In this document: positions 11,848 through 63,268 of the stretch, in pieces
Layout: each line of letters opens with the position of its first letter
Numbering within the stretch: the stretch's first letter is position 1
Assembly: GCA_934699525.1 (NCBI GenBank)
Contig: CAKUWP010000004.1
Location: forward strand, 42,724 to 106,723
DNA length: 64,000 bases
Source of the DNA: an uncultured Bacilli bacterium
GTDB taxonomy: Bacteria; Bacillota_I; Bacilli_A; RFN20; CAG-826
Direction of reading: 5' to 3'
Made by a program: the position numbers and the translations under genes
Notes under the pieces: model-generated
Databases searched by the model: none
What the model was told of the DNA's origin: nothing
What the model saw: only the letters and a program-made list of their open reading frames with translations

Positions 11848-12744
11848 ATGAGTGAATTCATAAGCGTCAAAGAAGCGTCCATTCAATGGAATCTATCGGA
11901 AAGAACCGTCCGGAACTATTGCTCTCTTGGGAGAGTACATGGGGCGATTTTAGTTGGCAAAACATGGAAAATTCCCGCGGGAGCAAAGAAACCGATCCGA
12001 ACCAACGAAAAAGAAGGGAAAAACTATCTTTTGGAGAGGCTGCGCTTAGAAAAGAAAAATCAAATCAAAGGCGGCATCTACCATAAACTGATGATTGACC
12101 TCACCTTCAACTCCAATCACATGGAAGGCAATGAACTCACTCACGATGAGACGAGGTACATCTTTGAAACGAAAACGATAGGAATCGAAAAGAATACCAG
12201 CAAAAAAGTAGACGATATCGTAGAAACGATGAATCATTTTGCCGCCATCGATCGCGTCATTGATTTTGCTAACTATCCATTAAGCGAAACTTTTATCAAA
12301 GAATTACACAAAATACTTAAATCGAATACTAGCGATTCTAGGCTCCCTTATTTCGCCGTTGGCGATTATAAGAAGATGCCCAATGAAGTTGGCGGTTTGG
12401 AAACGACTCACCCAAGGCTTGTGGGGTCCGAAATGAAGAAACTTCTTAGCCAATATAACAAAAAGGAAAGCCATTCTTTGGAAGAAATCGTGGAATTTCA
12501 TGTCCAATTTGAAAGGATTCACCCCTTTCAAGACGGAAACGGAAGGGTGGGCCGCTTAATCGCATTCAAAGAATGCCTAAAGAACAACCTGGTTCCCTTT
12601 ATTATTTTCGACGATAAGAAGGTTTTCTATTATCGGGGCTTAAAGAATTGGGATCAAGAACACGGTTGGCTTATGGACACCTGTTTGGAGGGACAAGATA
12701 TCGTTAAGACGTATTTGGATTATTTCAATATTGCCTATCGATAA
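11848..12744 (+). CDS. Fic family protein (HTH plus Fic domain)
   Basis: 298 aa with the canonical Fic motif HPFQDGNGRVGR and an N-terminal HTH. Confidence 0.85.
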   Translation: MSEFISVKEASIQWNLSERTVRNYCSLGRVHGAILVGKTWKIPAGAKKPIRTNEKEGKNYLLERLRLEKKNQIKGGIYHKLMIDLTFNSNHMEGNELTHDETRYIFETKTIGIEKNTSKKVDDIVETMNHFAAIDRVIDFANYPLSETFIKELHKILKSNTSDSRLPYFAVGDYKKMPNEVGGLETTHPRLVGSEMKKLLSQYNKKESHSLEEIVEFHVQFERIHPFQDGNGRVGRLIAFKECLKNNLVPFIIFDDKKVFYYRGLKNWDQEHGWLMDTCLEGQDIVKTYLDYFNIAYR

Positions 12745-45433: not shown

Positions 45434-45724
45434 TTAATATTGGGACTTTGTCCCATCTGCATAGCATATTAAAAATGAAACAACATCAGTTAACGTGCCG
45501 AGAACGCCTGTAGAAGTCGCGCCTCCACCCAACTTGCAGGGAATCCACAAGCCGTTCCTGCGAACGTTGACTTCCCCAAATAACGCTTTATATCCACTCG
45601 CCCCTTCGTGGTATGTCGTGTTTCTTACCGTCGGAAACGCGAACAAAGCAAAACAGAGTACCAAAAAAGCAAGAAGTATACCGCAACCTACGGCATCCTT
45701 TTTCACGATCTCTTCCTTCCGCAA
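45434..45724 (-). CDS. small single-pass membrane protein
   Basis: 96 aa with one hydrophobic helix. Its start overlaps the end of the SPFH gene by 22 bp. Confidence 0.5.
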   Translation of the reverse strand: MRKEEIVKKDAVGCGILLAFLVLCFALFAFPTVRNTTYHEGASGYKALFGEVNVRRNGLWIPCKLGGGATSTGVLGTLTDVVSFLICYADGTKSQY

Positions 45725-47810: not shown

Positions 47811-48116
47811 ATGCAATCATGCATCTCGATAGAATGCCCCGATAATGAACTTGGAGCGCAAAATAGAATGGCGCATTTGAAGACGGAATTCGTTAGATTT
47901 ATCGGCAAGGCGGTATTGAGTGCCGCCACTCTTTTAAGGCTTGTATTTTCCAATGTTTCAATGCAGGATTTTTCAGCTAAATCTAGTATCGGCTGGAGCA
48001 GGTTTGCAAGTGCAGCCGATAAGCAACTATATGCTAAATATGGCTTGCCCGATAAAGGAACTTGCTTGATCGAAAATACGATAAACCAATGGATGAATTT
48101 GGAGGCAGTGGCATGA
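47811..48116 (+). CDS. small ORF translationally coupled (ATGA overlap) to the downstream gene
   Basis: 101 aa. Its stop overlaps the ATG at 48113. Confidence 0.3.
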   Translation: MQSCISIECPDNELGAQNRMAHLKTEFVRFIGKAVLSAATLLRLVFSNVSMQDFSAKSSIGWSRFASAADKQLYAKYGLPDKGTCLIENTINQWMNLEAVA

Positions 48117-49915
48117 ATATAGTACACGATTTGCTCCCTGCTCAAAAAACAAGAAAACGCAATCTTAAAGTAACGATTGATTTATATCCAATTACCACAG
48201 AACTCTATAATGAATTGGAGCGAATTGGAATTATTGATCGTATAAAAGATATTCCTCAACTTGGTCTAATAAAGGTAAAGAAAGAACTCAAAAAATCTAG
48301 GTATGATTACGCAATGCTTCAACTTTACTTTCACCAGTTGATAAGGCAGAAAATTCAGCCCAATTTAAGACTATCTTACGGTAACCATATAAAAAATGCG
48401 CCTATTGCAAATAAGGAAACTAATGAATATGCAGACTTTGGCATAGATGTCGGAATTATCAATAAGAGTTTCGCACCATCAATAGCAGACGCGATGCAAA
48501 CGCTATCGATTGTCTATAACATAGGGCATTTCTATAATACATTTACTTCATCTAGAGCCGTAGTTTTGCTTGCTGCAGAAGATATAAAATTTAGAAATCT
48601 GCTATTGGAGGCTTCTCGTGAGCCTAGATATAAAGAAACGGTTACTAAGCTACTTGAAGCAAAAAATTATCAGAAATTCCATTTAGTTAATTCATTGTTA
48701 ATATTGGAACACTGCAACCAAAGATTGCCATCTGTACTATTTGCAAAAGAACTTCTGTATGCATATATAAACGAACAGAATCTCCCGGAAAACAGCAAGC
48801 TAAAATACGTATTTGATGTCTTTAGAAAGGTCAGAACGTTATCGTATATGGCCTATGACCTTCAAATCGCCAAAACACCGTTCACCATTGATATTGCAAA
48901 TGGAGAAGCTCTACTTATTTTGATGACGGAATGGTTGTCTGAATACAATAATACGATGTCGCCCAATCATCTTGTTAATTCAATGAGCAAATTGTTAGAC
49001 GATACTGTTTACAATGAAAACTCAAACGCAATTTGTTACTACAGAATTTCAAAAAGAATTGTCGGTAAGCTGAAAGAATCGCCATCGCATAACGCCACTA
49101 GTTATTACAACGATTTGTTCTTAAATAAAGAAAGTGTTTTAAATGTCGCTTATTCGCAGAGTAGAAACTATATAGAAAAACAAATTCTCAAATTAACGTT
49201 TTCTAAGGATGATAGAAATTTGTCATTTGGTTTAATTGGTGATCTTGAAAGTTTAAATAATACTCGTGTTGGATATTATGATAGGCGTACCGGCGAGCAA
49301 ACAATAGTCGCGTCGATAAAGTCATCGTGCAATTATGAAAAAAAGACGTTAGCGGCATTAAAGATAATTAGAAAGGCTATCTCCGCATTGAGAAAAATAG
49401 GCGATATTTCAACTTCGGACACGAGATATATACTTTGCGTAAAATTTTTCTTATTTTACTTATTTAGAGAAAATCCAGCCGTTATTGTTCCAACTATTAG
49501 CAAAGAAAAATGTGTTTTTTGCACGAGGGGCAAAAAGAGCAGAATCAACGAAGTTAAGCGGTTATTGAATGACAATAATGGTTCCGAAGACCAAGCACAT
49601 GAATGCAAATTTTTAGTTAGCGTTCTTAATGAGGATAAAACGAATGATACAACATTAACCGTCCCGGCAAGCATTCAAGTATATGATAAAAATACACCCG
49701 GGAAAAAATTGTGCGAATTCGATGGAATAATCATTCACCCATTGAGAGAAAGGGATCAAGTTATCTTTTTAGAAGCCAAAAATATATCCCACACTCCTTC
49801 GGAAGGAAAGAACTGCCTATTAGATAAATTTAAAAAATTATCGATCCCGTATAGTGAAGAGGACATCAAAATTAGAAATTATGACGCATTTATGAAATAT
49901 TGCATAAGAAGGTGA
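48113..49915 (+). CDS. large AT-rich protein with a possible C-terminal PD-(D/E)xK nuclease motif
   Basis: A GGAGG Shine-Dalgarno motif lies 7 nt before the ATG. The C-terminus reads EFDGIIIHP...VIFLEAKN (D...ExK). Confidence 0.55.
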   Translation: MNIVHDLLPAQKTRKRNLKVTIDLYPITTELYNELERIGIIDRIKDIPQLGLIKVKKELKKSRYDYAMLQLYFHQLIRQKIQPNLRLSYGNHIKNAPIANKETNEYADFGIDVGIINKSFAPSIADAMQTLSIVYNIGHFYNTFTSSRAVVLLAAEDIKFRNLLLEASREPRYKETVTKLLEAKNYQKFHLVNSLLILEHCNQRLPSVLFAKELLYAYINEQNLPENSKLKYVFDVFRKVRTLSYMAYDLQIAKTPFTIDIANGEALLILMTEWLSEYNNTMSPNHLVNSMSKLLDDTVYNENSNAICYYRISKRIVGKLKESPSHNATSYYNDLFLNKESVLNVAYSQSRNYIEKQILKLTFSKDDRNLSFGLIGDLESLNNTRVGYYDRRTGEQTIVASIKSSCNYEKKTLAALKIIRKAISALRKIGDISTSDTRYILCVKFFLFYLFRENPAVIVPTISKEKCVFCTRGKKSRINEVKRLLNDNNGSEDQAHECKFLVSVLNEDKTNDTTLTVPASIQVYDKNTPGKKLCEFDGIIIHPLRERDQVIFLEAKNISHTPSEGKNCLLDKFKKLSIPYSEEDIKIRNYDAFMKYCIRR

Positions 49916-50004
49916 CCACGCTGGAACAATCCGTACTCTAGTGTGTTCACTTTAATTCGTTTCAAAACCTTATTTGCAAACAAAGGATGAATAGATTCGA
50001 AAGA

Positions 50005-50390
50005 CCTCATTTGCAAACGAGGGATGAATAAATCCGATTATTTCTCGATTTTCCCGAATCTATCGCGGTATTTTATGCGGATTTGCTTCGAAAACCCTCT
50101 CTTCATGAACCGTTTCGCCTTGTTCATTTTGCTCCTTGGACCACTGTCAGCGACTAAAGCAAACCGATCAAATCTTGAGCGCCGAGCGACGTGGCCAAAA
50201 TGCGGGCGCACGATTTTCCCCCTCCTGTCGTAGGGAGTCATTTATCTCGACCAGATCGGCTTTTCCGCGGCGATATATTGTAAGACTGCTGCTTCAAATC
50301 TGCGGTGTCGCCACGGAGAGGCATTGATTGCGGATGCGACCACGTCAATTATAACGCCTCAGAAAATCATCCCTCGTTTGCAAATGAGGT
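50005..50390. mobile_element. MITE-like element with perfect 23-bp terminal inverted repeats CCTCATTTGCAAACGAGGGATGA
   Basis: Left TIR 50005..50027, right TIR 50368..50390 as an exact reverse complement. A second copy of the left end sits at 51014. Confidence 0.7.
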
Positions 50391-50486
50391 TTTAATTCTT
50401 TTAGATCTTTGCGCGAAGAATTTTATGGCATTCTCTCATTCGTTGACATAAAGCGCGCTTCACCCAAACGAGAAGAGGTAAAAGGA

Positions 50487-50918
50487 TTATTTTGAGTTAT
50501 CCGTAAAGAAATCTAAGGTCTTTTGGCACATTTCTCCACCGAAAAATTTCTCCAGTGCATTCTTATATTTATTGTTCGTCGTAGCCAAATATGCCATCGT
50601 AAGAGAGGACTGCAACTTTAAGGCGTCTACTACGCCGAATATTTCAAACGCAGTGAATGATTGGCTCATAATGGCTTCTACGCATTCATCATAACGATTG
50701 CGTAAAATGGGATTAGCCATGTATGCCTTTGCTTCTTCGGTGCTTTTTATGGCAAAAAACTCACTTGTTTCGCTTCTGCCAAGTCCTGAAGCTTGAGGAA
50801 AGACATACCACATCCAATGGGTTACCTTTCTCCCGTTTTTGAGTTCTTTTATAGCGTCCAGGTAGTTGGATTTCTGCGCATCCAAGAATCTTTTAAGATT
50901 GTATTTATCTTCGTTCAT
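50487..50918 (-). CDS. DUF1810 family protein
   Basis: GRKVTHWMWYVFPQ is the DUF1810 signature. The annotated ORF N-terminus (to 51122) runs into the repeat element, so the start is more likely the MNEDKY Met. Confidence 0.65.
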   Translation of the reverse strand: MNEDKYNLKRFLDAQKSNYLDAIKELKNGRKVTHWMWYVFPQASGLGRSETSEFFAIKSTEEAKAYMANPILRNRYDECVEAIMSQSFTAFEIFGVVDALKLQSSLTMAYLATTNNKYKNALEKFFGGEMCQKTLDFFTDNSK

Positions 50919-51013
50919 TTTGTCATTCCCTAATAACTTTATGCGTTTCCAATCGATGTGGTAAACATTTTCTACACTAACAAGTTTTCTATCAGAGACT
51001 ATCGTGATTAAAA

Positions 51014-51480
51014 CCTCATTTGCAAACGAGGGATGAATAAATCCGATTATTTCTCGATTTTCCCGAATCTGTCGTGGTATTTTATTCGGATTATCTTGGA
51101 AAACGCCATCTCCAGAAACCATTTCACCTTATCCATTTTGTCGTGGAGGTCGTATATCTCATCCAAAGGATTGTCTTCGTCCTTCATTCCGTGGGTTTCG
51201 GCGCTTGTGTGGATCTCGCTTTTGATGGCGAGCGCGTCGATGACGGCGTTGTGGCCCTTTTCACCGTCGTGGACCAACGTCGAGCATTCGGCGATTCGCT
51301 TTCCGTATGCCTTGAGCATGGCTTTGTCACCCGGCTTGTTTTTGCCGGTGACGACGTAGAAACTCCATTCGCCGTCGGTCCCGCACGCGACGTAGTATTG
51401 GCAGCCCCTGGTCAAGCCGCCTTTGGCGTGGGGGCGGAGGAAAAAGCAGGGGCTGGAAGACCGACGGTGAGACCGTGAAA
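51014..51480 (-). mobile_element. truncated second copy of the TIR element carrying a degenerate transposase remnant (possibly IS1595-like)
   Basis: A 31-bp match to the right TIR at 51006..51036. A GC-rich block (51150..51480) encodes YYVACGTDGEWSFYVV...ECSTLVHDGEKGH, weakly like the ISXO2 domain, with a frameshift. No right end was found. Confidence 0.35.
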
Positions 51481-51616: not shown

Positions 51617-52339
51617 TCAATAGAAGATCCTTTTGTAAGGGTACATCCAATGGTAGCTTGGATGGTAGCCTTCAAAGAAATCGATACCTGATTTTCTTAA
51701 TTCTTCGTTTACCATGAAATGGAGACCTTTTCTTCCAAAAGTGCAAAGATTAACAATGTGGCATTCTTTAGAAGAGTGAATAAGGGCGTTTAACCTGTTC
51801 GACAAATCGTCTTGGAACCCAGCACTCCAGAAATTAATCCAGTTTTCATCTCTCGCATTCACGTCAATTGGGCTTTGCCCCTGGCTTGCCTGGTATTGAA
51901 CAGCATTAACCAAAACCAATTTGTAGGAATTTTGATGCAAAGTATTGATAAAAAGCGGGGATTGTAAGAAAACATCATTCAAGTACTTCAAAATATTGTT
52001 ACCAGCGCCACCGCTATTAAAATCGTTAGCTGGGCCAATGGGATCCCCGTTTTGATCATACTCACAGCAGTGCGGACTTTCCAAAATTAACACGATGTAA
52101 CTGCCTGAAGGCACTTTCGAATAATCGACGCAATAACCAGGAGCATTGTTCGAAATCGATTGTCTCCCTCTAAAATTCACACTTTGAAATCGAAATTGTT
52201 GTCCGCAGCCTCCGATAACGTTCCCAACAATTTGATCAGGGCACAGCTGAGTGGAAAAATTAATGGCTCCTTGACCAGGTTTAGTTAAATTATTAGGTAT
52301 GTTGGCAGCTAAATTTACCGTAATGTTGAATCTTTGCAT
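51617..52339 (-). CDS. unknown-function protein (ILESPH-motif family), last gene of the toxin/ABC operon
   Basis: Probable start at MQRFNITV. Paralogous to 59429..60091 (shared IxILESPH...E(Y/F)...G.P.GPAN...QYQ.S). Confidence 0.55.
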   Translation of the reverse strand: MQRFNITVNLAANIPNNLTKPGQGAINFSTQLCPDQIVGNVIGGCGQQFRFQSVNFRGRQSISNNAPGYCVDYSKVPSGSYIVLILESPHCCEYDQNGDPIGPANDFNSGGAGNNILKYLNDVFLQSPLFINTLHQNSYKLVLVNAVQYQASQGQSPIDVNARDENWINFWSAGFQDDLSNRLNALIHSSKECHIVNLCTFGRKGLHFMVNEELRKSGIDFFEGYHPSYHWMYPYKRIFY

Positions 52340-52359
52340 ATTTTTACCTTCTTGAATGA

Positions 52360-53094
52360 TTAAAACCGATAAAAACCATTTTCGTCCACTGGCCCAAAAC
52401 AGTTGAAGCACTTATATTCGTCGACTATAGGCTCAATCTTTTTTTGTGCGATTTGATATTGTTTATTGATTCGCGGTAGGGCGTGGCAATGGGTGACAAT
52501 CAGAACGCCTGCTTTCGGGTTATTCTCGTGAATCGAATTAATCATATTCGAAATGGTCCTAACATTTTTTGCGTCAAGGTTATTCAAGGGTTCGTCAATT
52601 AAGAATAAATCGGAATTTTTTCGGCATAAAGTAGCAATAAGAGCCGCCATTTTCTTTTCCCCTCCGCTTAATTGGGGCCCGCGTTTTGAAAATAGTTTCT
52701 TATTTTTCAAATATGGAATTCCGAATTTATCGAACAAACTATTGATATAATCTTCGTCTCTTGTCCCGCAATGAAGTTCATAGGAATAACACGCTTCTTT
52801 GAAGGGCGTTTCCTCGCAAAAAGAATCTTCTTGAGGAACATAGCCAATTCGTTTTCTATAATTTTGAAGATCGAAATCACGAGAAGCAATTTCATTGCCT
52901 CGATATCGAATGTCCCCCTTGATGTTTAAACCGCTTCTTTCTCCAAAAATCGCCTTGAGCAAAGTCGATTTTCCCGAGCCGTTGTCGCCTGACAAAATCA
53001 CAGTTTGTCCTTCTTCAATCGAAAGATTAGCGTGATCCAAAATTACGTTTTCTCCAACGGAGATAGATAAGTCCACAACATCAATCAACGCCAT
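52360..53094 (-). CDS. ABC transporter ATP-binding protein
   Basis: Walker A GDNGSGKST, signature LSGGEKK, Walker B LFLIDEP. Confidence 0.85.
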   Translation of the reverse strand: MALIDVVDLSISVGENVILDHANLSIEEGQTVILSGDNGSGKSTLLKAIFGERSGLNIKGDIRYRGNEIASRDFDLQNYRKRIGYVPQEDSFCEETPFKEACYSYELHCGTRDEDYINSLFDKFGIPYLKNKKLFSKRGPQLSGGEKKMAALIATLCRKNSDLFLIDEPLNNLDAKNVRTISNMINSIHENNPKAGVLIVTHCHALPRINKQYQIAQKKIEPIVDEYKCFNCFGPVDENGFYRF

Positions 53095-53095
53095 G

Positions 53096-54049
53096 CTAAA
53101 TCCTCCTCATTTTTGCCATATAGATCAATTGCGATAGCAATATACCGAGCGCCGACAGCAAGCCAAGGCAAAGAACAGTTGCCAAGTAATGGGCACCACC
53201 CGAAATTGGAATCCACACCACATCAACAAGCAAGGTGAATATGACAAGCGAGAAAACAGGTGAGGTAATGACAAGAGTGTCTTTGCTAATCGTCTTGATG
53301 TTTTCTCCGTATTTCTTTCGGTTCTTTTCTACGCTTTGAAAATCCGAAAACAGCAATAAGAACAGAGATAAAGTCAATATTGAGAAGCCCAAAAAATACA
53401 GAATTGGCAGTCCAACTACAAAACCTAAAATACCATGTTTTGCCGACTCAATTGGATACACCTTAGTATTTATGGGTAGATTGATCTTCCCCTTTTCGGA
53501 GTCCTTTACAAAACTTAAATATTTCCGAGACGGCTGCGCCAATTGTTCGTCGTAGCCAATAACTAATAATCCTGAGGCGTTCGAATAATCAATATCGTCT
53601 AGCCCATAACATGAATCCGAAATCTCCTTAACTATAAGCGCTTTACTTTTAGAGAACACGGAAGCGGATAGATAGATATAATCGCCAACTTTAATTTTGT
53701 TTTTATCAGCAAGATTTTTGGAAACGGACGCCTCATTGGAAAGAAGTTTGGTATTCGTTTTTTGTAGCATTAGTTTTTCCGTTTTCACCATGCAATCGCA
53801 CGATTCAAATTCCCCGTGATTTTTGAGGTGAACGTTGCACAATCCTTCGACGTCGTAAAAAGAATTATCGTCAATCTTTTCGGACGTTTCATAAATATTT
53901 TGAACTTCGTTATAAAAATGGAATTGTTCCAATCTCATATTGGCCTGTCGGCATATGGCAACAGAACTAAAAACGCCAACAAAGAAAATTGCCAGCATCG
54001 AAAGTAAAATCCTTTTATCCGAATATGTTCTCTTAAAAATTTCTTTCAT
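53096..54049 (-). CDS. FtsX-like ABC transporter permease
   Basis: N-terminal TM segment, extracytoplasmic domain and a C-terminal TM cluster. Start taken at MKEIFK. Confidence 0.55.
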   Translation of the reverse strand: MKEIFKRTYSDKRILLSMLAIFFVGVFSSVAICRQANMRLEQFHFYNEVQNIYETSEKIDDNSFYDVEGLCNVHLKNHGEFESCDCMVKTEKLMLQKTNTKLLSNEASVSKNLADKNKIKVGDYIYLSASVFSKSKALIVKEISDSCYGLDDIDYSNASGLLVIGYDEQLAQPSRKYLSFVKDSEKGKINLPINTKVYPIESAKHGILGFVVGLPILYFLGFSILTLSLFLLLFSDFQSVEKNRKKYGENIKTISKDTLVITSPVFSLVIFTLLVDVVWIPISGGAHYLATVLCLGLLSALGILLSQLIYMAKMRRI

Positions 54050-54057
54050 GACTTCTT

Positions 54058-55221
54058 CTACCGTTTTTTGCCAAAAAAGGAATTGGCTTTTTTCAGGGAA
54101 AGAAGAATGTTGACACCGAAACACAGCAAAACTACCGCAGCCTCAATTGTAACCAAGGCTGCAAAAGGAAATGTCCTTATGTACGACGAGGAACAAAGCC
54201 TGTTTGCAACTATTATCCCTGAGGAAACCGCCAAACTTAGTCCAAAAGAAACAACGTGTGGAACAGCGTAGTATTTGACAATGAACTTTTTATCCTCGCC
54301 ATTTTTAACAAATTGTTTCACCTTGGCCGATTCATTTTTCCGCGCGTCCATTATTAACGTAGCGACAATGGAAAAAAGGAAGGGAATCACATATCCGATG
54401 ATGGCCATGGTATAACCATTTTTACGCAGACTATCCGATTTCAAATAATGATCGGCTGAATCTAAATGAGCCGTGACGATTTCGCTGGAATAGTCTGTAT
54501 TGTTAAAACCAGCAAGATAAATGTTGTAGGCTTCATCGCTATCAAATTCACTCCGTTCTCTCAAAAGGCCCATGGGCTTGTAATTTGCGTACAAGTAATT
54601 TTTGCATTCCTCCTTGTTTGGAGAGGATAAATAAGCTCCGCTATAAGGCAGGGCCTTTGTCCTATTTTTCATAACGGCATTCTCTACCGTCTTGTTATAT
54701 TGGACGGCAATGGCACCACCGTCAAAAAGCGTATTTTCTTCAAAAATACCAGCGATAACGAATTTCAATGTTTGCCCATTAAGAGCCAGCGTCGCTTCAT
54801 CGCCGAGTTTGCACTTCGTCTGCGCAAAAAAGGCATAGTCAACATACACGGAATGCTCGTCAAACGCGCTAGAATCGATGCATCGCTTTTCGTTATAAGG
54901 CGACAACCCCATGTTGGAAAATGTATCGAAAAAGAGAATGTTGTTGGTTTGTTCTTTCTCGTTACAAGTCGCATTAGCCTTCGTGTAATAATATGGAAGA
55001 ATGCTTGAAACAAACGGCTCATTTTTAAAATTTTCAACCTGCTCCTTTGAGGGGCTAGGAATCATAAAATCAATCTGAGTATTTTCGTAAACGCTTGTTT
55101 CATTGTAGGCATCGCGAAAATTCGAAATCCCCACGCACAACAAAGAAGAAGACAATGAACTTAGCAAAATAGAGACTATAGATAGTGGCAATACCCTGTG
55201 CTTAAATAACCCCATTTTCAT
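54058..55221 (-). CDS. FtsX-like ABC transporter permease
   Basis: 387 aa with the same architecture. Confidence 0.6.
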   Translation of the reverse strand: MKMGLFKHRVLPLSIVSILLSSLSSSLLCVGISNFRDAYNETSVYENTQIDFMIPSPSKEQVENFKNEPFVSSILPYYYTKANATCNEKEQTNNILFFDTFSNMGLSPYNEKRCIDSSAFDEHSVYVDYAFFAQTKCKLGDEATLALNGQTLKFVIAGIFEENTLFDGGAIAVQYNKTVENAVMKNRTKALPYSGAYLSSPNKEECKNYLYANYKPMGLLRERSEFDSDEAYNIYLAGFNNTDYSSEIVTAHLDSADHYLKSDSLRKNGYTMAIIGYVIPFLFSIVATLIMDARKNESAKVKQFVKNGEDKKFIVKYYAVPHVVSFGLSLAVSSGIIVANRLCSSSYIRTFPFAALVTIEAAVVLLCFGVNILLSLKKANSFFGKKR

Positions 55222-55224
55222 TCA

Positions 55225-55776
55225 CTACTCTCCAGAAGGCGTAACAAATGAGATGGTGCTTTCGAAATTAAAACTGCTCTTGATGGGTGCATCAAACATA
55301 AACGTCACTTTGATTGTTCCAACATCGTTGGGCAAATACTGGAAAACACAACCAAATTCGGGCTTATCCGAAATATCTTTGTAAGCGACTGCAGTCATTT
55401 TATACGTCGTGACATTATGAATTTCATCATGTTCAGGCAAAACCGGTTGTCCATCAAATTTCGTCGCCTGCACGCTGGTAATTTTTGGAATGGAAACCAT
55501 CAAGCCTATTTCCTTTCCGTTTCCCTTCATGTTGCTGGAGCGGATGGCCAATTTGTATTTCATGAAGCACGGTTCGCCGACATTAAATTCTTTTCGATTT
55601 TGTGCATACGCCCAATCCGCATCCACGCCAGCGCTATAAAGAACGCTAAGCGATGGATAATACTCCGGTTCGGCCAGATACTCTTTAGAAAGTTTGACCC
55701 CAAAATATGCAGTTGTGGCAATCAACGCCAATCCAGCTGCGCATCCGGCAATGATGCCGATTGTTTTACCGCCCAT
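55225..55776 (-). CDS. membrane-anchored protein, unknown function
   Basis: 183 aa with one N-terminal TM segment. Confidence 0.5.
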   Translation of the reverse strand: MGGKTIGIIAGCAAGLALIATTAYFGVKLSKEYLAEPEYYPSLSVLYSAGVDADWAYAQNRKEFNVGEPCFMKYKLAIRSSNMKGNGKEIGLMVSIPKITSVQATKFDGQPVLPEHDEIHNVTTYKMTAVAYKDISDKPEFGCVFQYLPNDVGTIKVTFMFDAPIKSSFNFESTISFVTPSGE

Positions 55777-55793
55777 AATGATTAACCCCTTTT

Positions 55794-56435
55794 CTATTCG
55801 ATGTATGTTTTATTTCTGATCATAGCAGGCTTTCGAATATCAAAATCTATTTTATACCCATTCGAGTCGTATTTGCCATTTAATTTTCGAATGCAACAAT
55901 GGAGCATTTCCTCAATGGAGTCCCATCGTTTAACTACTTCTATTTCGTTGTTTGTCACAATTGCCGAAAAACAGTTTTCTTTTGATGCTTTCGCGTCTAA
56001 GAGAAGCAAGGCGTTTGTACTCGAATTCTTTGAATAATATCCAAAAGTAATCCAATTTGGCATCACGTGCTTCGGCAACAAAGTGTTGTTTTTTCCAATG
56101 GAATTCGGCTCACTAAGGTAGCGATAATCCACTTTGTCCGTTACCCCGTATAAAATTAAAGAATTACTAAACAATTGCATTCCATTATGCATTTTTAAAA
56201 TGGCGAATAGTTCATCAATGGCCTTTGACGATGATACTCCCGCCTTGTTTAACAATAGACTTTTGGCGTTTAACAACTCTTGGGGATCGGCTTTATGAAA
56301 TAAGGTAAACAGCCAAAATTGTTCACCGAGTCTTGCCAAGTGTTTATAAAAGCATGTGCCTTTACCCAATTCGTCCGTTTTGAAATCCCCTTTATCAACG
56401 ATTGAGGACAAGCCCAATTCTTTTTCCAAATCCAT
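55794..56435 (-). CDS. SMI1/KNR4 (SUKH-1) family immunity protein
   Basis: 213 aa. ELFAILKMHNGMQLFSNSLILYG and NWITFG...LLLLD resemble SUKH-1 motifs. It sits directly downstream of the toxin gene. Confidence 0.55.
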   Translation of the reverse strand: MDLEKELGLSSIVDKGDFKTDELGKGTCFYKHLARLGEQFWLFTLFHKADPQELLNAKSLLLNKAGVSSSKAIDELFAILKMHNGMQLFSNSLILYGVTDKVDYRYLSEPNSIGKNNTLLPKHVMPNWITFGYYSKNSSTNALLLLDAKASKENCFSAIVTNNEIEVVKRWDSIEEMLHCCIRKLNGKYDSNGYKIDFDIRKPAMIRNKTYIE

Positions 56436-56438
56436 CTA

Positions 56439-58067
56439 TCACAAACCTCCAAATATTGACGTGAAAACTTCGGTTAGGTTTTTCAATTCTCCCGATGTTG
56501 GGCGACTCCATTTTCCACCGTGCGCAGCCAAATGACCGGCGAAAGAATAAAACTGAATATTGTCTGGATTATTCGCAATCCAAGGGAAATTTGCGACATT
56601 ATTAATATGATGACCTTGGAACCCATCCGGAAATTTGCCATATTGTTGCACGTAAACGATAACATCGTCTGTGAAAGAAGGCCCGTAATCGTAAGGAATG
56701 TCATTTTGAATCATCCGAATAATCATTTCCTTGTTTGTTTTCACCCCTTGGTTAGCAAGGTTTGCGACAACTTTGTTCCATCCCGTTTGAATGTTTAACG
56801 CATCGTCCAGCATTCCAGCAATCTTATTGGAGGCATCCATTAAATAATAATTCGTGCCATCAAACACCACGCTTATATTTTTCCCGTCATTCAATACATA
56901 AGACCCAAACGTTTGGGCGCCGCCAATTAGCGTCGGCGGGTCGGTCGACGGGACAAACGTGTTGGTAATATTGCCATAACAATCTAATTTCAGTCCGCTA
57001 TTAATCGCCCTCATATAATTTGCCGTCGATTTTCCATTCGCGTCGATGCTGCATAACAACATACCCCTGTATTCATTTACGCCGATAACATCGCCGACCT
57101 CGTTTAATTCTCCAACCAGTTTTCCGCCTTTATACACCTTATTGCCTTGAACTGTAAAATCTCCGCCAGAATAGCGACCTTGGGGCGCTCGGATGGTCGA
57201 TAAATTCGATGGGTACGACTCAACAATATGCGTGGAAAGGCCGTTTTCTCCAAACATGTATGTGACCTTCCCGTGTGAGTCGACGACATAAGTATTGCCG
57301 TTCGTTCCGATTTTAGCCTTGCCCAGCAATTTGCCCTTGGAATCATAAAAATTTCCGGACGCGTCCGTTTTGCCCAACAGTTGAGTGCCATCAGCACTGA
57401 AATAGTTGTTTGGATCGCTTACGACTTTGGCGCCTTTGACTAAACCCGTTACCGTGCCAGAGATGGCCCCCCACATGAAACCATCCGCAAGACCTTCCAC
57501 AAAATACTTTTTGGCAGCCTGCGAGTTAAATTCGCCCGCCTGAATAGATTTAACTGCAACGTTGATGATTCCGCCAATTGTGCCACCAATCAGCGCTTGT
57601 TTAACCCCTTCCGTGAATGCAGTGGCAAAAATATATGCCACAGGCGTATTAAGCGTTGCAATTGTCGCAATTCCCGTAAAAACAATCACGGCTGCTCCGA
57701 TATCGAATCTAGTCAACACTCCTTCCCAATCAATGTCATAGTTTTCGAATCCTTCAGGAAGCGTAGCGTAAAAACTTTCCGAAAAATCTTCGGTGAGAAC
57801 TTCTTCGCTTACGAAAAATTCGTGTTCGACCAAATCGTCGATCGTTTTCTCCGCACCCACCATTTGCTCTTCGAGATTGTCATAAAACAAAACTTCATCC
57901 TCGAATTTTTCAAAATAGAAGTGTTCATATTCATATACTTCGGACTCGACAGCATCCGGGTCATATAAATTAATGCTTTTTGGTTTTTCCGACGAACACG
58001 CCGAAACGCTTATAGCTATAAACGGCAACAAAATACGTTGAAACAAGCGTTTAAAATTATTTTTCAT
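56439..58067 (-). CDS. lipoprotein polymorphic toxin with a C-terminal GHH-signature HNH/EndoVII nuclease domain
   Basis: 542 aa with a lipobox ISVSACSS. The C-terminus reads GFQGHHINNVANFPW...HLAAHGGKW. Confidence 0.55.
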   Translation of the reverse strand: MKNNFKRLFQRILLPFIAISVSACSSEKPKSINLYDPDAVESEVYEYEHFYFEKFEDEVLFYDNLEEQMVGAEKTIDDLVEHEFFVSEEVLTEDFSESFYATLPEGFENYDIDWEGVLTRFDIGAAVIVFTGIATIATLNTPVAYIFATAFTEGVKQALIGGTIGGIINVAVKSIQAGEFNSQAAKKYFVEGLADGFMWGAISGTVTGLVKGAKVVSDPNNYFSADGTQLLGKTDASGNFYDSKGKLLGKAKIGTNGNTYVVDSHGKVTYMFGENGLSTHIVESYPSNLSTIRAPQGRYSGGDFTVQGNKVYKGGKLVGELNEVGDVIGVNEYRGMLLCSIDANGKSTANYMRAINSGLKLDCYGNITNTFVPSTDPPTLIGGAQTFGSYVLNDGKNISVVFDGTNYYLMDASNKIAGMLDDALNIQTGWNKVVANLANQGVKTNKEMIIRMIQNDIPYDYGPSFTDDVIVYVQQYGKFPDGFQGHHINNVANFPWIANNPDNIQFYSFAGHLAAHGGKWSRPTSGELKNLTEVFTSIFGGL

Positions 58068-59041
58068 TTTTGATACTTCTCGACAAGTTTCTTCCCTTGC
58101 TCCGCTAAATCATCTTTCAGCCATTGCGGTTCTAGCACCGTTGCATTCTCGCCAAAGCCAAGAATAAACACCCGTATGCTCTCCTTATTTTGCATATCAA
58201 CGGAGACCTTGGTGCTTTTATCGTCTATGGGTTCCACCACTTGATTCTTGCCATAGGTTCTTTCTTTGACAAGACTTGCATAATTGCCGTGGGCAATGAA
58301 TTCGACATGGAACCATTCCCCATTCTTTTTGAATCCATATTCGTCTACAAAATCATTCTTGTTATAAAGGGAATAAACGCAGAACTTTTGGTCAGTCATT
58401 TCAATGTTTTGGATACGATTTAATTTGTACGGGAATATACCACTATGATCACCGGAATGTAGCCACCCGATGACGAACCATGCATTGTTATACATGATTA
58501 AATCGTAAGGGTCGAATATTCTTTCTTTCGTAACGTTCTTCTGGGTCAAATACGTGAACTTGACCGTCTTTTTGCGGCAGATGGCCGCCTTTAGCATGTC
58601 ATAGCGGAATTGAATTTCTTCTTGGGACATCGCAAGAGGGAACCGGTTAATCACGGAGGCATCTTCTTCCTGTTTGATTTCATTCATAACCAAAGTGGAG
58701 AACACTTTTCCCATTGCTAGTTGGAAGTCCTTCTTCCGCATGAAATCGTTTCTCGAGGATAAATATCGATCCGCTTCTATTAACGCCTCTTTTTCGGATT
58801 CGCTAAACCGTAACGGTGGGATAACGGCGTTGCCGTTTAACCGGTAACCGCCATATCGGCCAGAGGTTGCTTCCACCAAAAAGTCGCAATTGCTTTCATA
58901 GGCCACTTCGTCCAGCTCTTTTTTGTATTCAAGGATGTTTCTTTCCTTAGTCCCCAAAAGATCTGCTAATTCAGATTTACTATAAATTCGCCCCGTGCTC
59001 AGAACCTGAAGCATCCGGATGCACATTGCTGCTTTCCCCAT
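58064..59041 (-). CDS. HTH-WYL domain transcriptional regulator (BrxR/CapW-like architecture)
   Basis: 325 aa with an N-terminal HTH and a WYL motif DPYDLIMYNNAWFVIGW. It overlaps the toxin gene by 4 bp. Confidence 0.7.
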   Translation of the reverse strand: MGKAAMCIRMLQVLSTGRIYSKSELADLLGTKERNILEYKKELDEVAYESNCDFLVEATSGRYGGYRLNGNAVIPPLRFSESEKEALIEADRYLSSRNDFMRKKDFQLAMGKVFSTLVMNEIKQEEDASVINRFPLAMSQEEIQFRYDMLKAAICRKKTVKFTYLTQKNVTKERIFDPYDLIMYNNAWFVIGWLHSGDHSGIFPYKLNRIQNIEMTDQKFCVYSLYNKNDFVDEYGFKKNGEWFHVEFIAHGNYASLVKERTYGKNQVVEPIDDKSTKVSVDMQNKESIRVFILGFGENATVLEPQWLKDDLAEQGKKLVEKYQK

Positions 59042-59428
59042 GATTATTGCCTCATATAATGTTATATTAAAAGCGTATTAATGGCACGAGCCTTTCAAGC
59101 GGCAAAGCCTCTTGACATCGATATTGAAATCTTGCTTAAAACGCAAATAGTATCGGAGATGGGTGTATGACATTAAGAGAAGTAAAACAACGATGCTTGA
59201 AAATTTACAGCGACCCCCTCTTGTCTCCCAAAGACAAGCAAATGGAATTAATCGGTTTCCTTTTGGAACCAGAACGCAACTTCAAACGTCGTAGCATCAA
59301 TAAGTTGCTTAATAGCCTTGTTGCTTCAGGCATACCAGTGGACGATCTCGCCGGCATTCAATTAATTGCCGAGACAAAACACTAACGCAGGATTTCCGCA
59401 ATTGCTCTTTTTGTTCCCCCGCATATGA

Positions 59429-60091
59429 TTATCGCCACGCACTTGGATGAGGGTGTAAATCATTTGAATTGATAACTAATTCCACGAGCGACCGCAAACT
59501 GCCTTTGGCATTCCCTCCCGTTACACAATTCATCATAACGGATGGGTGGATTAGATTAATTCTTTTTTTCAAATCTTGTTGAAGGCCGAGTTCACCATGG
59601 TTCCAAAGCGCTTTAAAGACATAATTTCGAATGGTGTGCCAGTTCGTGTGATAATCGTGGTAATTATGTAAGGCTTGATAACATGACGTTTGATACTGAA
59701 TCGAGTTAATCAAGTATACCTTATATATTCTTGCTTTATTCATTTTCTTTGGCTGGCGTTTGCTCATTTCCTTAACTAATAAAAGATTTATTTTGTATCC
59801 CGTAATTCCATTTGCGGGTCTAAGCGGTATGCCCGTTGAAGAGAATTCATCTTTATGCGGTGATTCCAAAATTATAGCCATGTTTTCAGTCTTTTTAGGC
59901 ACGATTTGGGATAAGCCATAAAATACCCATTGGCCATTAACGCATTTCAGAAAGCCTCTCGGCTCATCCATCACTTTATCGTTGCCGGAAAAACTCACAG
60001 TGGCATTTTGAATTCCTGATTTAGATTTGAAAATATTTGTTTTTGAAGAAAACGTAATCTGAATATTTTGATTATCGATATGTATATTCAT
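59429..60091 (-). CDS. unknown-function protein (ILESPH-motif family), paralog of 51617..52339
   Basis: 220 aa, adjacent to the restriction-modification genes. Confidence 0.55.
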   Translation of the reverse strand: MNIHIDNQNIQITFSSKTNIFKSKSGIQNATVSFSGNDKVMDEPRGFLKCVNGQWVFYGLSQIVPKKTENMAIILESPHKDEFSSTGIPLRPANGITGYKINLLLVKEMSKRQPKKMNKARIYKVYLINSIQYQTSCYQALHNYHDYHTNWHTIRNYVFKALWNHGELGLQQDLKKRINLIHPSVMMNCVTGGNAKGSLRSLVELVINSNDLHPHPSAWR

Positions 60092-60207: not shown

Positions 60208-61464
60208 TCAGTCCTCTTGTTCTACCAAATTTTCGATGTTTTTGGCTATTGTTTTAATGAGTCCACAGACTAACGCGTTGCCCATCATAAAATAACGTCT
60301 TTTTTCTGGCATTCCAGTATTTGTCCAGTTATCAGGAAATTCATCAATTCTTTCACATTCAACTGGAGTCAAAATTCGATATTTGTTAGTAATCGGATCA
60401 AGAATAATGTGGGACGAACGATTGACCGTGCCTTCACTCGTTAGCATAGTTCTAGCTGGGACGTCTAATTTATCCGGGAATGGTATTGGCCCTTCCGAGT
60501 ATATGTATTTGTGCCCATTAGCGGCTATTCTTTCAATTTTTTTCGAGCCTTTTAAGTATTCGAATTTCTTAACGTTCGTTTTATAACAAAATTCGGGAAC
60601 GTTATGGCAATCTAAGCAATCCCTAAGAGTTTTACTTGTTCCGTCATAAACTGCATTGAGTTTTGCAGTTATTATCTTGTAATTCAGCATAAAGCCAGCG
60701 TTATTAAAATCGAATTTAAACTTATCTGAAACCTCAACAACCGTTTTAAATTTTTTCTTCGATATATCGGTTATTTTATTTTCCTCCGAACAAACTAGCG
60801 ACGCCGGGAAACAAGAAAAAAGCATTTCTTTTTGAACGTCCTTCTGAGAGAAGTCGCTATTATTTTCGAACTTCTGATAGTATTTAGTGGTGTTGTGGAA
60901 CGCGAAAATAAAAGTTCTTCTTCTTTTTTGCGGATGTCCATAATCCGCGGCGTTAATAACTCTCCATTGAACGCCGTAGCCTAAATCAGCAAAACAGCGA
61001 AGAATAATCCCAAATGCTTGGCCCCTTTGCTTGGCTGGCGCTTTTAATAGTCTGTCTACATTTTCTAATAAAACGAATGGCGGTTTCTTCGCTTTTAAAA
61101 TGTCGTTAATATCCCACCAAAGAACACCTTTTTTGCCTTCAATTCCTTTTTCGCCTTTCAACGAATGGGCAACGGAATAATCTTGGCAGGGGAATCCGCC
61201 GCATAACACTGAGTGAGCAGGAATAGCGGTTCTGTCAACTTTTGAAATATTGATATTAGAATTTTTTTCTGCATCTGGAAATCTAGTATTGTAGCAATCG
61301 AAAGCATGCTGGGTTTTCGTCGATGGTTCCCATTGATTCGCCCACACGAAATCCCATGGTCCGTTTTCAATGGCTTTTCCATTTTTATCAAATCCTTCGA
61401 TATCGTTAAATCCCACACGGAATCCTCCAACACCTGCAAATAATTCAACAACTGTCTTGTCCAT
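60208..61464 (-). CDS. DNA (cytosine-5)-methyltransferase
   Basis: Motif I FAGVGGF, motif IV GFPCQDYS, motif VI ENV, motif VIII QRRRTF. Confidence 0.9.
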   Translation of the reverse strand: MDKTVVELFAGVGGFRVGFNDIEGFDKNGKAIENGPWDFVWANQWEPSTKTQHAFDCYNTRFPDAEKNSNINISKVDRTAIPAHSVLCGGFPCQDYSVAHSLKGEKGIEGKKGVLWWDINDILKAKKPPFVLLENVDRLLKAPAKQRGQAFGIILRCFADLGYGVQWRVINAADYGHPQKRRRTFIFAFHNTTKYYQKFENNSDFSQKDVQKEMLFSCFPASLVCSEENKITDISKKKFKTVVEVSDKFKFDFNNAGFMLNYKIITAKLNAVYDGTSKTLRDCLDCHNVPEFCYKTNVKKFEYLKGSKKIERIAANGHKYIYSEGPIPFPDKLDVPARTMLTSEGTVNRSSHIILDPITNKYRILTPVECERIDEFPDNWTNTGMPEKRRYFMMGNALVCGLIKTIAKNIENLVEQED

Positions 61465-61795: not shown

Positions 61796-63268
61796 ATGGG
61801 AAAAGATAGGAAATTTACCAGTCGTGAGCTTTATGAATTATTAGACTCAGCCATGGGAAAAACCTTGGGCGAAGTTGACATCAACCATGTTTTTAAGAAA
61901 ACAAATGAGCACCCTAAAGTAACCGGAATTGCTGGCGATGTAGTAGAACAATCCGTTTTAGGATTCCCCGCAGACAACAAAGCCGAACCCGATATTGATG
62001 TTGACGGGCAATTAATTGAGGTTAAAACAACCGGTATTCGCGTATCAAAAACAAAAAAAGGCGAATTTGAAGCAAAGGAACCGGTTTCAGTTACGGGTGT
62101 TTCGCCAGAAACAATCGTTAACGAAACGTTTTACGATTCAAAATTTTGGCACAAACTCAAAAAGATTTTGTTTGTATATTACGAATATTCATCCGACAAA
62201 CCGGTAACCGCCGCCGAATATGCCAAATTCCTTTTAAGAGGCTATGATTTTTATAAGTTCAGCAACCGAGATGAAAAAATTCTTAAGAATGACTGGCAAT
62301 TGGTCAGGGATTTCATAGATGATTTGCATTCTCAGCCAGGTTTTAACGACGAAGAATATGCAAGGCTATCTCACGAATTAAGAGACAAATTGATGTACAT
62401 CGATACCGCTCCAAAGTGGCCCAATTCCCCAAGATTTAGATTGAAGCGTTCCCTGGTAACAACTATTGTTCAGGAACATTTTAGCAAAAAGCGGCTCGAA
62501 CAAGACGTTGAGGAAATTTGTAACATTTCAGAGCTTAATGCAACGTGCCACGAACTAACATCAAAATACAAAGGAAAAACAGTTAAATATTTAGCCAAGG
62601 AATTTAAGATTCCTCCTACCAGCAAAAATGGAACGGTAAACAAATCCATCGTCGAAAAGGTGATAGTAAGAATGTTTGGTGGCAAATCGGCGACAATTAA
62701 TTCTTTAGATGTTTTTAGAAAATCGGGAATTTATGGCAAAACGATCATTCTTTCAAACAAAGATGGTAGAACCGAGGATACAAAATTATTCACAATTAAT
62801 TTCGATGAGTGGCTGGACAAAGAGGTTTCATTTGAGGAGTCCCAAATTTTTGAATATTTTTCCAACAACAAACTTCTATGTATCCAATTCAAAGAAACTA
62901 AACCAGGAGATTTGCTGGAAAGCGAATTTGTCGGATTTAAACTTTTAAGTTTCGACGATAAATTCATCAACGAATACGCGCAAAAATATATTTGGGATAC
63001 GGTTCGAAAGACAATCTTTAATGGCGAACTTAAAGAAAGCTTTTGTAATGGGAAAGATGGGCAACCAATCATTAATCCTTGTGGCACAAAGAAAACGGAA
63101 ATTAATTTCCCTAAATCCAGAGACAATAAAAAGCTCTTCCTAAGAGGCACCGGCCAAGATTCAAAGCACAAGACATTACAGTTATGTGGAATTCAAATGT
63201 ATCAGCAGCAGGTATGGATTAAAGGCAAAGATATTGTAGAGTTGCTAAAAGAAAAGGAATATTTATAA
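61796..63268 (+). CDS. Sau3AI-family (MutH-like) type II restriction endonuclease
   Basis: 490 aa. PDIDVDGQLIEVKTT...FVYYEY aligns with the Sau3AI PDMAEAGVELKATP...LAFYEY region (recalled from memory). Sau3AI is 489 aa. Confidence 0.7.
   Translation: MGKDRKFTSRELYELLDSAMGKTLGEVDINHVFKKTNEHPKVTGIAGDVVEQSVLGFPADNKAEPDIDVDGQLIEVKTTGIRVSKTKKGEFEAKEPVSVTGVSPETIVNETFYDSKFWHKLKKILFVYYEYSSDKPVTAAEYAKFLLRGYDFYKFSNRDEKILKNDWQLVRDFIDDLHSQPGFNDEEYARLSHELRDKLMYIDTAPKWPNSPRFRLKRSLVTTIVQEHFSKKRLEQDVEEICNISELNATCHELTSKYKGKTVKYLAKEFKIPPTSKNGTVNKSIVEKVIVRMFGGKSATINSLDVFRKSGIYGKTIILSNKDGRTEDTKLFTINFDEWLDKEVSFEESQIFEYFSNNKLLCIQFKETKPGDLLESEFVGFKLLSFDDKFINEYAQKYIWDTVRKTIFNGELKESFCNGKDGQPIINPCGTKKTEINFPKSRDNKKLFLRGTGQDSKHKTLQLCGIQMYQQQVWIKGKDIVELLKEKEYL

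Follow-up and report, generated by a model that had tools for sequence, protein, structure and literature searches.

Nuclease toxins of the GHH type with SUKH immunity proteins, WYL regulators and ATP-binding cassette (ABC) transporters of the MacB fold are all known singly. Here we describe a locus with candidates for all three, found in a stretch of 64,000 nt from an uncultured Bacilli bacterium (contig CAKUWP010000004.1, positions 42,724 to 106,723; the whole stretch is referred to as the window). The locus is a module of seven genes, in which the gene for a predicted Sec-dependent nuclease toxin is followed by genes for an immunity protein, a membrane-anchored immunoglobulin-like (Ig-like) protein and an ABC transporter. 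Anaerobic Firmicutes and spirochaetes dominate gut and rumen communities, and to our knowledge little is established about the way in which Sec-exported polymorphic toxins ("T2SS-type" in the Zhang/Aravind tables) exit from the producer and reach their target cells, especially in these two groups.

Among the described systems, the Tox-GHH/Imm-SUKH cassettes surveyed by Zhang et al. (2012, PMC3482391) are closest to the toxin end of the module. The published Tox-GHH motifs are G[HQ]H, NIxF, a downstream [DE]H and, farther upstream, WxxE and W (PMC3482391), the SUKH gene follows directly, and the pair also ends RHS-type toxins of other phyla. The module shares the G[HQ]H, NIxF and His motifs of the HNH/EndoVII fold and the position of the SUKH gene, but the front half of its nuclease domain is divergent, with WxxE and W replaced and a score below threshold, and its N-terminal module has no Pfam family. 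The survey lists no ABC transporter as a partner of GHH toxins (PMC3482391). Other Sec-dependent polymorphic toxins with a conserved N-terminal domain are MafB/MafA of Neisseria and SitA of Myxococcus; MafB is partnered by a conserved lipoprotein, and the SitA proteins are lipoproteins with swappable nuclease ends and adjacent immunity genes (PMC3482391, PMC5562445). In contrast to the module, to which no sequence similarity was detected, these toxins use other delivery routes, e.g., TraAB outer-membrane exchange for SitA, and not an ABC transporter.

The characterised type VII ABC systems do not transport their substrates through the membrane. ATP-driven movements of their extracytoplasmic parts extract or expel substrates at the outer face, as in LolCDE, MacB, HrtBA, BceAB and YbbAP, or activate partner proteins, as in FtsEX (PMC5985334, PMC9595528, PMC12646458). 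MacAB-TolC (enterotoxin STII) and Aat (lipoprotein Aap/CexE) use a MacB-fold ABC protein to move a Sec-exported protein or lipoprotein outward from the outer face of the cytoplasmic membrane (PMC5985334, PMC7943197), as we consider for the module. Unlike these systems, the module has no genes for an adaptor (MacA/AatB), a TolC-like protein or an acyltransferase, its permeases are heterodimeric and separate from the ATPase, and its nearest relatives are found in one-membrane Ruminococcus and other Firmicutes. The BceAB, YknWXYZ and lactococcin-972 transporters belong to the same permease superfamily and are also genetically linked to toxin or bacteriocin loci, but they have a 10-transmembrane (TM) BceB or a single permease gene and protect against small peptides, not against a 57-kDa nuclease, and the module scores below the cut-off of the sequence models.

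The ABP toxins of Colautti et al. (PMC12582261) are activated by a protease and represent a different system. A full-text literature search returned no description of the toxin-ABC association reported here. Pfam, NCBIfam, PADLOC and the literature searched contained neither the N-terminal toxin module nor the Ig-like partner nor the recurrent coupling of both to a dedicated heterodimeric type VII ABC transporter, although these may still exist in print.

A Mobile Module of Seven Genes

Eight co-directional open reading frames (ORFs) lie head to tail on the minus strand at window 51617-59041, at exactly the coordinates given by an earlier description made from the letters and ORF calls (the sequence-only reading). 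The overlap of 4 bp between the regulator and toxin genes was present as described there, and the successive gaps after the toxin gene are 3, 17, 3, 8, 1 and 20 nt. The locus was present with identical sequence in at least seven contigs of human-gut metagenomes, of which the longest (ERZ27287477 k141_524162) has 106.8 kb, and it is therefore real and no assembly artefact.

The borders of the module were defined by comparison with other genomic contexts. In locus L069, whose permease is 96% identical, blastn aligned window 59088-52318 with 95.5% identity over 6771 nt, and nothing outside this block was aligned except a DUF4097 gene about 4 kb farther upstream. Three more distant versions, with toxins 59-66% identical to the window toxin, preserve all seven genes and their order in three further contexts. 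Their upstream flanks are a Pkinase/VWA/PP2C cluster or an unannotated gene, and their downstream flanks are a Schlafen-like helicase or an IS21 element. The ILESPH gene, which the sequence-only reading had counted as the eighth member of the operon, was absent from all three neighbourhoods inspected. Since the homology to L069 ends at 52318 and the distant copies have other downstream genes, we concluded from these alignments that the functional unit begins with the WYL regulator gene, ends with the ABC ATPase gene and comprises seven genes (window 52318-59088, about 6.8 kb), and that the ILESPH gene lies outside of it. The module is self-contained and horizontally mobile, and it behaves as a polymorphic-toxin cassette within a hypervariable island of conflict genes.

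Searches of Pfam, NCBIfam and PADLOC gave no match for five of the eight proteins, and among the PADLOC models only the generic WYL and ATPase models matched genes of the module. Rfam had no match in window 47-64 kb. Promoter-like matches were found 18 times in our scan, with 18.4 expected by chance; terminator-like sites (17 versus 8.3 expected) were mostly located inside coding sequence and were not used.

In two of the other contexts, L064 (3037-8977) and L067 (2375-7880), genes for a Ser/Thr kinase, two VWA proteins and a PP2C phosphatase as well as unknown genes lie directly upstream of the toxin module, and a gene for a Schlafen-group-3-like helicase follows it. These flanking genes may be further conflict systems.

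The Toxin and Its Immunity Protein

The toxin gene (window 56439-58067, minus strand, as for all module features below) encodes a predicted 57-kDa nuclease of 542 aa. Residues 1-24 (57996..58067) are a lipoprotein signal peptide with the lipobox V-S-A-C; the hydrophobic segment spans residues 7-26, and Cys24 of the lipobox is invariant in all six orthologues. By its composition, the stretch of residues 25-112 (57732..57995) is an acidic, Tyr/Phe-rich linker with 22% Glu and 9% Asp, and the spirochaete and Fibrobacter relatives have repeats of the Y-x-E type at this position. A hydrophobic Gly-zipper module follows (residues 113-225, 57393..57731), which its invariant columns mark as a conserved N-terminal trafficking or membrane module. 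It contains the motifs DIDW...IG.A.IV..G... and EG.ADGFMWGA and the hydrophobic segments 115-151 and 154-177, and neither the window copy nor its relatives matched a Pfam family in this part. Residues 226-430 (56778..57392) were assigned by composition and weak profiles to a Gly-rich beta-hairpin repeat region, with sub-threshold matches to DUF3659 and Bflower_2 in three of six family members.

The C-terminal part of about 110 residues (431-542 plus the stop codon, 56439..56777) reads QGHHIN...NPDNIQFY...H...H and was assigned to a divergent Tox-GHH (HNH/EndoVII) nuclease at the family level. Five of the six family members matched Tox-GHH (PF15636), the best with 3.3e-16, while the window copy itself stayed below the Pfam threshold (E 0.0037; 17.6 bits versus a cut-off of 25; profile positions 51-76 only). 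The low score of the window copy is due to the replacement of both upstream Trp motifs: in the window clade Trp is replaced at the WxxE and W positions, and the Glu of WxxE is kept. The catalytic motifs G[HQ]H, NIxF and the downstream His do fit the window toxin. G485-H486-H487, N503-I504-x-F/Y, H512 and H516 are invariant in the six orthologues. The acidic residue that precedes H512 is kept as D/E by four of the five relatives and replaced by Gly in the window copy. A profile search with the toxin alignment against PDB sequences gave nothing significant, and in a scan of one genome per GTDB species the window toxin had no match above 33% identity. The word-index homology search was shallow for the module families (6 toxin matches, 8 permease matches). 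Signal and motifs indicate that the toxin is made with a Sec/lipoprotein signal and ends in an HNH/EndoVII nuclease of the GHH clade, in agreement with what the sequence-only reading had proposed.

The next gene (55794..56435) starts 3 nt after the toxin gene and codes for a protein of 213 aa without a hydrophobic segment. It had been called a SUKH-1 immunity protein, which held at the level of the family, although the window protein itself had no Pfam match at E 0.1 or lower. SMI1_KNR4 (PF09346) was matched by 10 of 16 homologues (best 3.3e-15), SUKH_5 and SUKH_6 by five homologues each, and the window protein is linked to the SUKH-matching homologues by tblastn with 3.6e-12. A profile search against the PDB gave the SUKH structure 3D5P at E 0.26, a weak match. 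Homologues were found directly after GHH domains (at most 93 nt) in 12 of 17 unrelated toxin genes, comprising RHS-type toxins and orphan cassettes of Acidobacteriota, Verrucomicrobia, Flavobacteriales, Proteobacteria, Treponema and others. Since the family co-occurs with GHH domains in many unrelated toxins and the protein has no hydrophobic segment, we read it as the cognate cytoplasmic immunity protein of the SUKH-1 (SMI1/KNR4) superfamily.

Recurrent Association of the Toxin Family with an Ig-Like Protein and an ABC Transporter

To sample the toxin family we used pattern-seeded scans of one genome per GTDB species and of metagenomes; the numbers given are no census. The N-terminal module of the toxin was found in at least 40 loci of the scan of one genome per GTDB species, in Lachnospiraceae, Roseburia, Oscillospiraceae, Erysipelotrichaceae, Ruminococcus, Brachyspira, Treponema, Fibrobacter, Synergistales and Elusimicrobiales. 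The homologues end in Endonuclea_NS_2, Colicin-DNase/WHH, AHH, LHH or GHH, i.e., in at least five nuclease types, and each type is flanked by different small genes. Because one N-terminal module is joined to different nuclease ends, these proteins are a true polymorphic toxin family.

We then considered the genes next to the 49 proteins with the N-terminal module that are shorter than 700 aa. A lipobox was present in 30 of these proteins; an Ig-like homologue followed in at least 31 cases, permease A in 21 and the ATPase in 19. No other partner accompanies the N-terminal module as constantly as the Ig-like protein. The order toxin, immunity, Ig-like, permease A, permease B and ATPase is complete in Ruminococcus (L051-53, L058 of R. 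flavefaciens ND2009, and L061). In Treponema (L017 and L023) and Elusimicrobiales (L032) the Ig-like gene is replaced by a gene for a secreted protein or lipoprotein of 241-314 aa. The reverse search, a metagenome scan seeded with a narrow alignment of permease A, returned five loci, four of them independent. The Ig-like gene was located directly upstream of the permease in all four, and the toxin with the N-terminal module was present in all three loci whose upstream sequence is long enough. Chance does not account for the link between toxin and transporter, which is seen again in Ruminococcus, Treponema, Elusimicrobiales and the metagenomic loci. The Ig-like and ABC genes accompany the toxin architecture across phyla, whichever nuclease end is present.

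The Gly-zipper segment is also an internal pre-toxin region of seven giant RHS-type proteins, and neither Ig-like nor permease genes accompany any of the seven. Since these RHS proteins have no partner genes, the link is to the short Sec-signal architecture and not to the Gly-zipper itself, which favours export over self-protection.

In the metagenomic toxin relatives L070 (777-2300) and L071 (3-1475), a segment that starts with C[LF]TGDTLV stands right after the Gly-zipper module. By eye it resembles a HINT (intein-like) self-cleaving start, which would imply that the N-terminal module stays behind and the toxin end is released.

Predicted Structures of the Ig-Like Protein and the Transporter

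The TM protein that the sequence-only reading had placed after the immunity gene is indeed membrane-anchored. The gene (55225..55776) encodes 183 aa, and the AlphaFold2 (AF2) model (pLDDT 77.8) has an N-terminal membrane helix followed by an Ig-like beta-sandwich of about ten strands. The model shows no enzymatic fold. In the Firmicutes relatives the protein is a lipoprotein.

Permease A (387 aa, 54058..55221) was modelled with four TM helices and, between TM1 and the other three, an extracytoplasmic domain of mixed alpha/beta structure and about 230 aa (AF2 pLDDT 79.4, pTM 0.69). Foldseek matched this model to LolE (3.8e-12), MacB (4e-12) and, with E values up to 1e-8, LolC, HrtB and BceB; the pneumococcal Spr0694-5 transporter, YtrF, YbbP and YknZ were matched as well. 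By predicted structure, permease A is therefore a type VII ABC permease of the MacB/FtsX/LolC-E fold. Permease B (317 aa from the ATG, 53096..54049; the longest ORF starts from a GTG at 54124) has the same 1+3 topology of TM helices, with hydrophobic segments 9-38, 202-241 and 253-315. In the loci of Treponema, Elusimicrobiales and L072, a hidden Markov model (HMM) of permease A also recognised the second permease (2e-21 to 7e-9); between A and B of the module, hhalign gave a weak match (E 5e-4) restricted to the extracytoplasmic domain. The designation of both as FtsX-like thus stood for the predicted fold of permease A and the topology of permease B but not for the sequence family, since not one of the 17 sequences of permeases A and B matched Pfam FtsX (PF02687), even with the E value relaxed to 1. 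MacB_PCD (PF12704) was matched by two permease relatives (best 2.7e-07) and not by the window copies, and profile searches with both permease alignments against PDB sequences gave nothing significant.

The last gene of the module (52360..53094) encodes the ABC ATPase of 244 aa, as had been predicted (Pfam ABC_tran 3.3e-26), with Walker A, LSGG, Walker B-Glu and H-loop all intact. It reached none of the NCBIfam equivalog cut-offs, among them those of LolD, FtsE and the Lcn972-type; the match to the lactococcin-972-type "bacteriocin export" ABC model (1.9e-23) also stayed below the cut-off. The module lacks a conserved gene for a hydrolase or a protease.

The sequence-only reading had described the transporter as a LolC/LolE/LolD architecture that is dedicated to lipoprotein release. 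The arrangement of subunits agrees with this: like LolCDE, the module has two paralogous four-helix permeases with large extracytoplasmic domains and one ATPase gene, LolE and LolC are among the best structural matches, and the presumed substrate in the window is a lipoprotein. Orthology to Lol was not supported. The NCBIfam LolC and LolE models matched neither permease, and the LolD model TIGR02211 gave 64.9 bits for the ATPase with a cut-off of 307.75. No LolA/LolB-like carrier is present in the module, whose accessory protein is the Ig-like sandwich, and the module is accessory and mobile and not housekeeping. Furthermore, the ABC-linked toxins of L023 (Treponema), L032 (Elusimicrobiales) and L072 have signal peptides without a lipobox cysteine, and lipoprotein release can therefore not be the general mechanism. 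We rejected the identity with a Lol system for these reasons. The transporter stands apart as an unnamed branch of its own within the type VII ABC superfamily, and it may work like an extractor.

The WYL Regulator and the Leader Region

The first gene of the module (58064..59041) encodes a predicted wHTH-WYL-WCX transcriptional regulator of 325 aa. The Pfam models for WYL (3.9e-13, residues 148-215) and WCX (1.5e-11, residues 255-319) both matched, which bears out the WYL-family regulator of the earlier description, and two PADLOC WYL profiles matched residues 7-319 with 2e-26 and 2e-24. No Pfam HTH model matched the protein, whose alignment to a PADLOC WYL profile begins at residue 7. When PDB sequences were searched with a profile of the protein, none of the solved WYL regulators was matched significantly.

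The WYL gene adjoins the toxin gene in all five genomic contexts of the window clade. Beyond this clade it is adjacent only in one Oscillospiraceae locus (L047), and in Treponema L016 and L023 a WYL gene is located nearby on the opposite strand. Putative WYL control as part of the toxin-transporter arrangement, as the sequence-only reading had it, was thus retained for the window clade and the Oscillospiraceae locus and not for the wider family.

Immediately before the start codon of the regulator gene, an A/T-rich leader with partial dyad symmetry (59042..59088) is a candidate promoter/operator; the L069 homology starts at 59088. The leader (window 59042-59100 and the equivalents in L064, L066, L067 and L069) can be aligned across the five contexts. 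The leaders of L064 and L067 contain dyads of the TACAT..ATGTA type, a candidate operator of the regulator. A promoter-like match is located at 59070-59043, and such matches are no commoner than chance. Since the regulator gene overlaps the toxin gene and is preceded by this conserved, A/T-rich and partly palindromic leader, we suggest that the operon is auto-regulated by the WYL-WCX protein.

BrxR, CapW, DriD and PafBC also combine WYL and WCX in proteins whose genes head accessory conflict operons that they probably auto-regulate (PMC9122601, PMC11662680, PMC10853764, PMC11804915); the WYL family is tied to defence islands, and regulators of the BrxR/CapW type typically head defence systems (PMC9122601, PMC11662680). 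The regulator of the module differs in that it heads the operon of a predicted exported interbacterial toxin and not a phage-defence or DNA-repair regulon. CapW, DriD and PafBC sense single-stranded DNA (PMC11662680, PMC10853764, PMC11804915), and it is therefore a reasonable guess that the operon is probably switched on by single-stranded DNA or DNA damage, by analogy to CapW, BrxR, DriD and PafBC. As a parallel among interbacterial weapons, the synthesis of colicins is induced under SOS control.

A 72-aa gene at window 59167-59385 (plus strand) is divergent from the WYL gene. It is kept on the identical contigs, lies outside of the L069 block and has no family match.

A Candidate Release Pathway and Alternative Functions

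By analogy to other type VII systems, the most likely function, to which we give an even chance, is that the ABC machine extracts the Sec-exported toxin from the membrane of the producer. After Sec export the toxin would be held in this membrane by its hydrophobic module and, in the window locus, by the lipid anchor. The transporter would act at the outer face of the cytoplasmic membrane and pull the toxin out by ATP-driven mechanotransmission, with the Ig-like protein as a docking or hand-off partner. Once extracted, the toxin could arrive at the cell surface or in the medium and move on to neighbouring cells. The WYL-WCX protein would auto-regulate the operon and respond to single-stranded DNA or DNA damage. 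For the scheme as a whole, we propose only tentatively that the heterodimeric ABC transporter of the MacB fold and the Ig-like protein together constitute a hitherto unrecognised, dedicated export and release pathway for Sec-dependent polymorphic nuclease toxins in gut and rumen Firmicutes, spirochaetes and Elusimicrobia, with a WYL DNA-damage switch in the window lineage.

Several points weigh against such a pathway. Many toxins with the N-terminal module in Lachnospiraceae, Oscillospiraceae and Fibrobacter have the Ig-like gene only and no ABC genes within about 10 kb, and in these loci the transporter must therefore be dispensable or encoded elsewhere. The release step was deduced from gene neighbourhood and analogy, the assignment of permease B from topology and a weak profile similarity, and the WYL regulation of the operon from adjacency only. 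The AF2 alignments were shallow (9 and 19 sequences), and the envelope of the host may have one or two membranes. Finally, ABC systems of the FtsX/MacB type in Firmicutes are often immunity or resistance devices.

The last point leads to the main alternative function, in which the Ig-like protein and the ABC transporter would be a second, envelope-level immunity in the manner of BceAB, LanFEG, YknWXYZ or the lactococcin-972 transporter. It would clear incoming toxin or its Gly-zipper entry module from the membrane of the producer ahead of translocation, while SUKH would handle nuclease that has already entered. The fold matches include BceAB, HrtBA and the extracytoplasmic domain of YknZ, the lactococcin-972-type export model is among the better matches of the ATPase (1.9e-23, below cut-off), and the Ig-like and ABC genes are placed after the immunity gene. 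The association also tracks the N-terminal module and not the nuclease type, and a defence against the entry module would look alike. We nevertheless regard this function as rather unlikely: the seven giant RHS-type toxins contain the Gly-zipper and have neither Ig-like nor permease genes, and the permease-seeded scan (four loci) revealed no orphan transporter cluster without a toxin. An FtsEX-like role, in which the transporter moves nothing, appears improbable. The transporter would then mechanically activate an extracytoplasmic partner, e.g., the Ig-like protein or an enzyme that remodels the wall, or it would cause the toxin to change its conformation or to be cleaved so that it can cross the wall. 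FtsEX belongs to the same type VII superfamily as the fold matches (PMC5985334), and surface processing as a part of the pathway is suggested by the HINT-like segment (by eye) that follows the N-terminal module in L070 and L071; on the other hand, the module contains no conserved hydrolase or protease gene and the Ig-like protein has no enzymatic fold.

Given the dense defence and conflict island in the window (type II restriction-modification (RM), AbiEii, three AAA_14/DUF4143 ATPases, SLFN/AlbA_2, Fic and TIR) and the typical position of BrxR/CapW-type WYL regulators at the head of defence systems (PMC9122601, PMC11662680), we also considered an intracellular anti-phage (abortive-infection) system, in which toxin and immunity protein would be a WYL-controlled toxin-antitoxin pair within a defence island. 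This is highly improbable in view of the conserved signal peptide and lipobox of the toxin, the polymorphic family with its interchangeable C-terminal nucleases, the GHH/SUKH pairs that also terminate RHS-type toxins and the partner proteins, which are envelope proteins. The PADLOC matches, limited to generic models, argue in the same direction.

The combination of trafficking module, Ig-like partner and MacB-fold ABC transporter is a concrete and genetically tractable candidate for the missing step of toxin exit. If the transporter does release the toxin, a type VII ABC "extractor" would underlie a new route of toxin secretion, and its superfamily would gain a new job beside lipoprotein sorting, efflux, cell division and peptide resistance. 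WYL-type regulation would then be extended from phage defence and DNA repair to interbacterial weapons. If, instead, the genes confer immunity at the envelope, this would be a new and also unreported envelope-level immunity against protein toxins.

The ILESPH Family and the Surrounding Island

Two ILESPH paralogues bracket the toxin module, as seen by paralogue comparison. One adjoins the module (51617-52339, minus strand), and the other (59429-60091, minus strand; 30-34% identity) is located directly downstream of a 5-methylcytosine (m5C) methyltransferase gene. The family is large and uncharacterised (1029 clusters with an E value of at most 1e-3, 268 of them with at most 1e-10), and its invariant motifs are ESPHxxE, QYQxS and HPSxW. 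It had no match in Pfam, NCBIfam, PADLOC, PHROG or PDB sequences, of which Pfam, PDB and PHROG were searched with a profile of 71 sequences. A relation to uracil-DNA glycosylase (UDG), considered because of a resemblance to UDG motifs A/B seen by eye, was not supported; hhalign against an approximate E. coli Ung sequence gave 0.2% probability in this weak single-sequence test. In 14 viral loci the family had no consistent methyltransferase neighbour. On the prophage-like contigs L075 (3231-3905) and L076 (3929-4603), an ILESPH-family gene separates the gene for the large terminase from that for the portal protein, as is typical of a "moron".

The m5C DNA methyltransferase (60208-61464, minus strand; Pfam 2e-64) forms a divergent type II RM pair with a restriction endonuclease (REase) of 490 aa (61796-63268, plus strand; PADLOC REase_II 1.4e-131), which is annotated as MutH on the identical contigs. 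L069 has other DNA in place of this RM system.

Window 5749-47349 is largely a conflict and defence island. It contains the three AAA_14/DUF4143 ATPases (5749-7050, 31387-32652 and 32765-34039), Fic (11848-12744), SLFN/AlbA_2-HTH (13392-14726), AbiEii (29589-30554), an FtsH-like AAA protein without an equivalog match (34230-35528), a TIR-domain protein of 1075 aa (40870-44097) and a Band_7/SPFH protein (45703-47349). An ORF of 617 aa follows at 48062-49915 (plus strand) in a stretch of low GC content (about 34%), for which a gene of 608 aa is called on the identical contigs; it had no match in Pfam, NCBIfam or PHROGs, and its exact sequence was absent from a collection of 15 billion proteins.

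Repeats are located at window 49964-50131, 50367-50396 and 51007-51140. There are four copies, one of them inverted, of a hairpin-containing element with a length of about 37 nt (AAAACCTCATTTGCAAACGAGGGATGAATAAATCCGA), and two direct repeats of 131 nt with 87% identity flank a DUF1810 gene (50487-51122). The hairpins and direct repeats have the look of a small element, mobile or prone to recombination, that borders the island.

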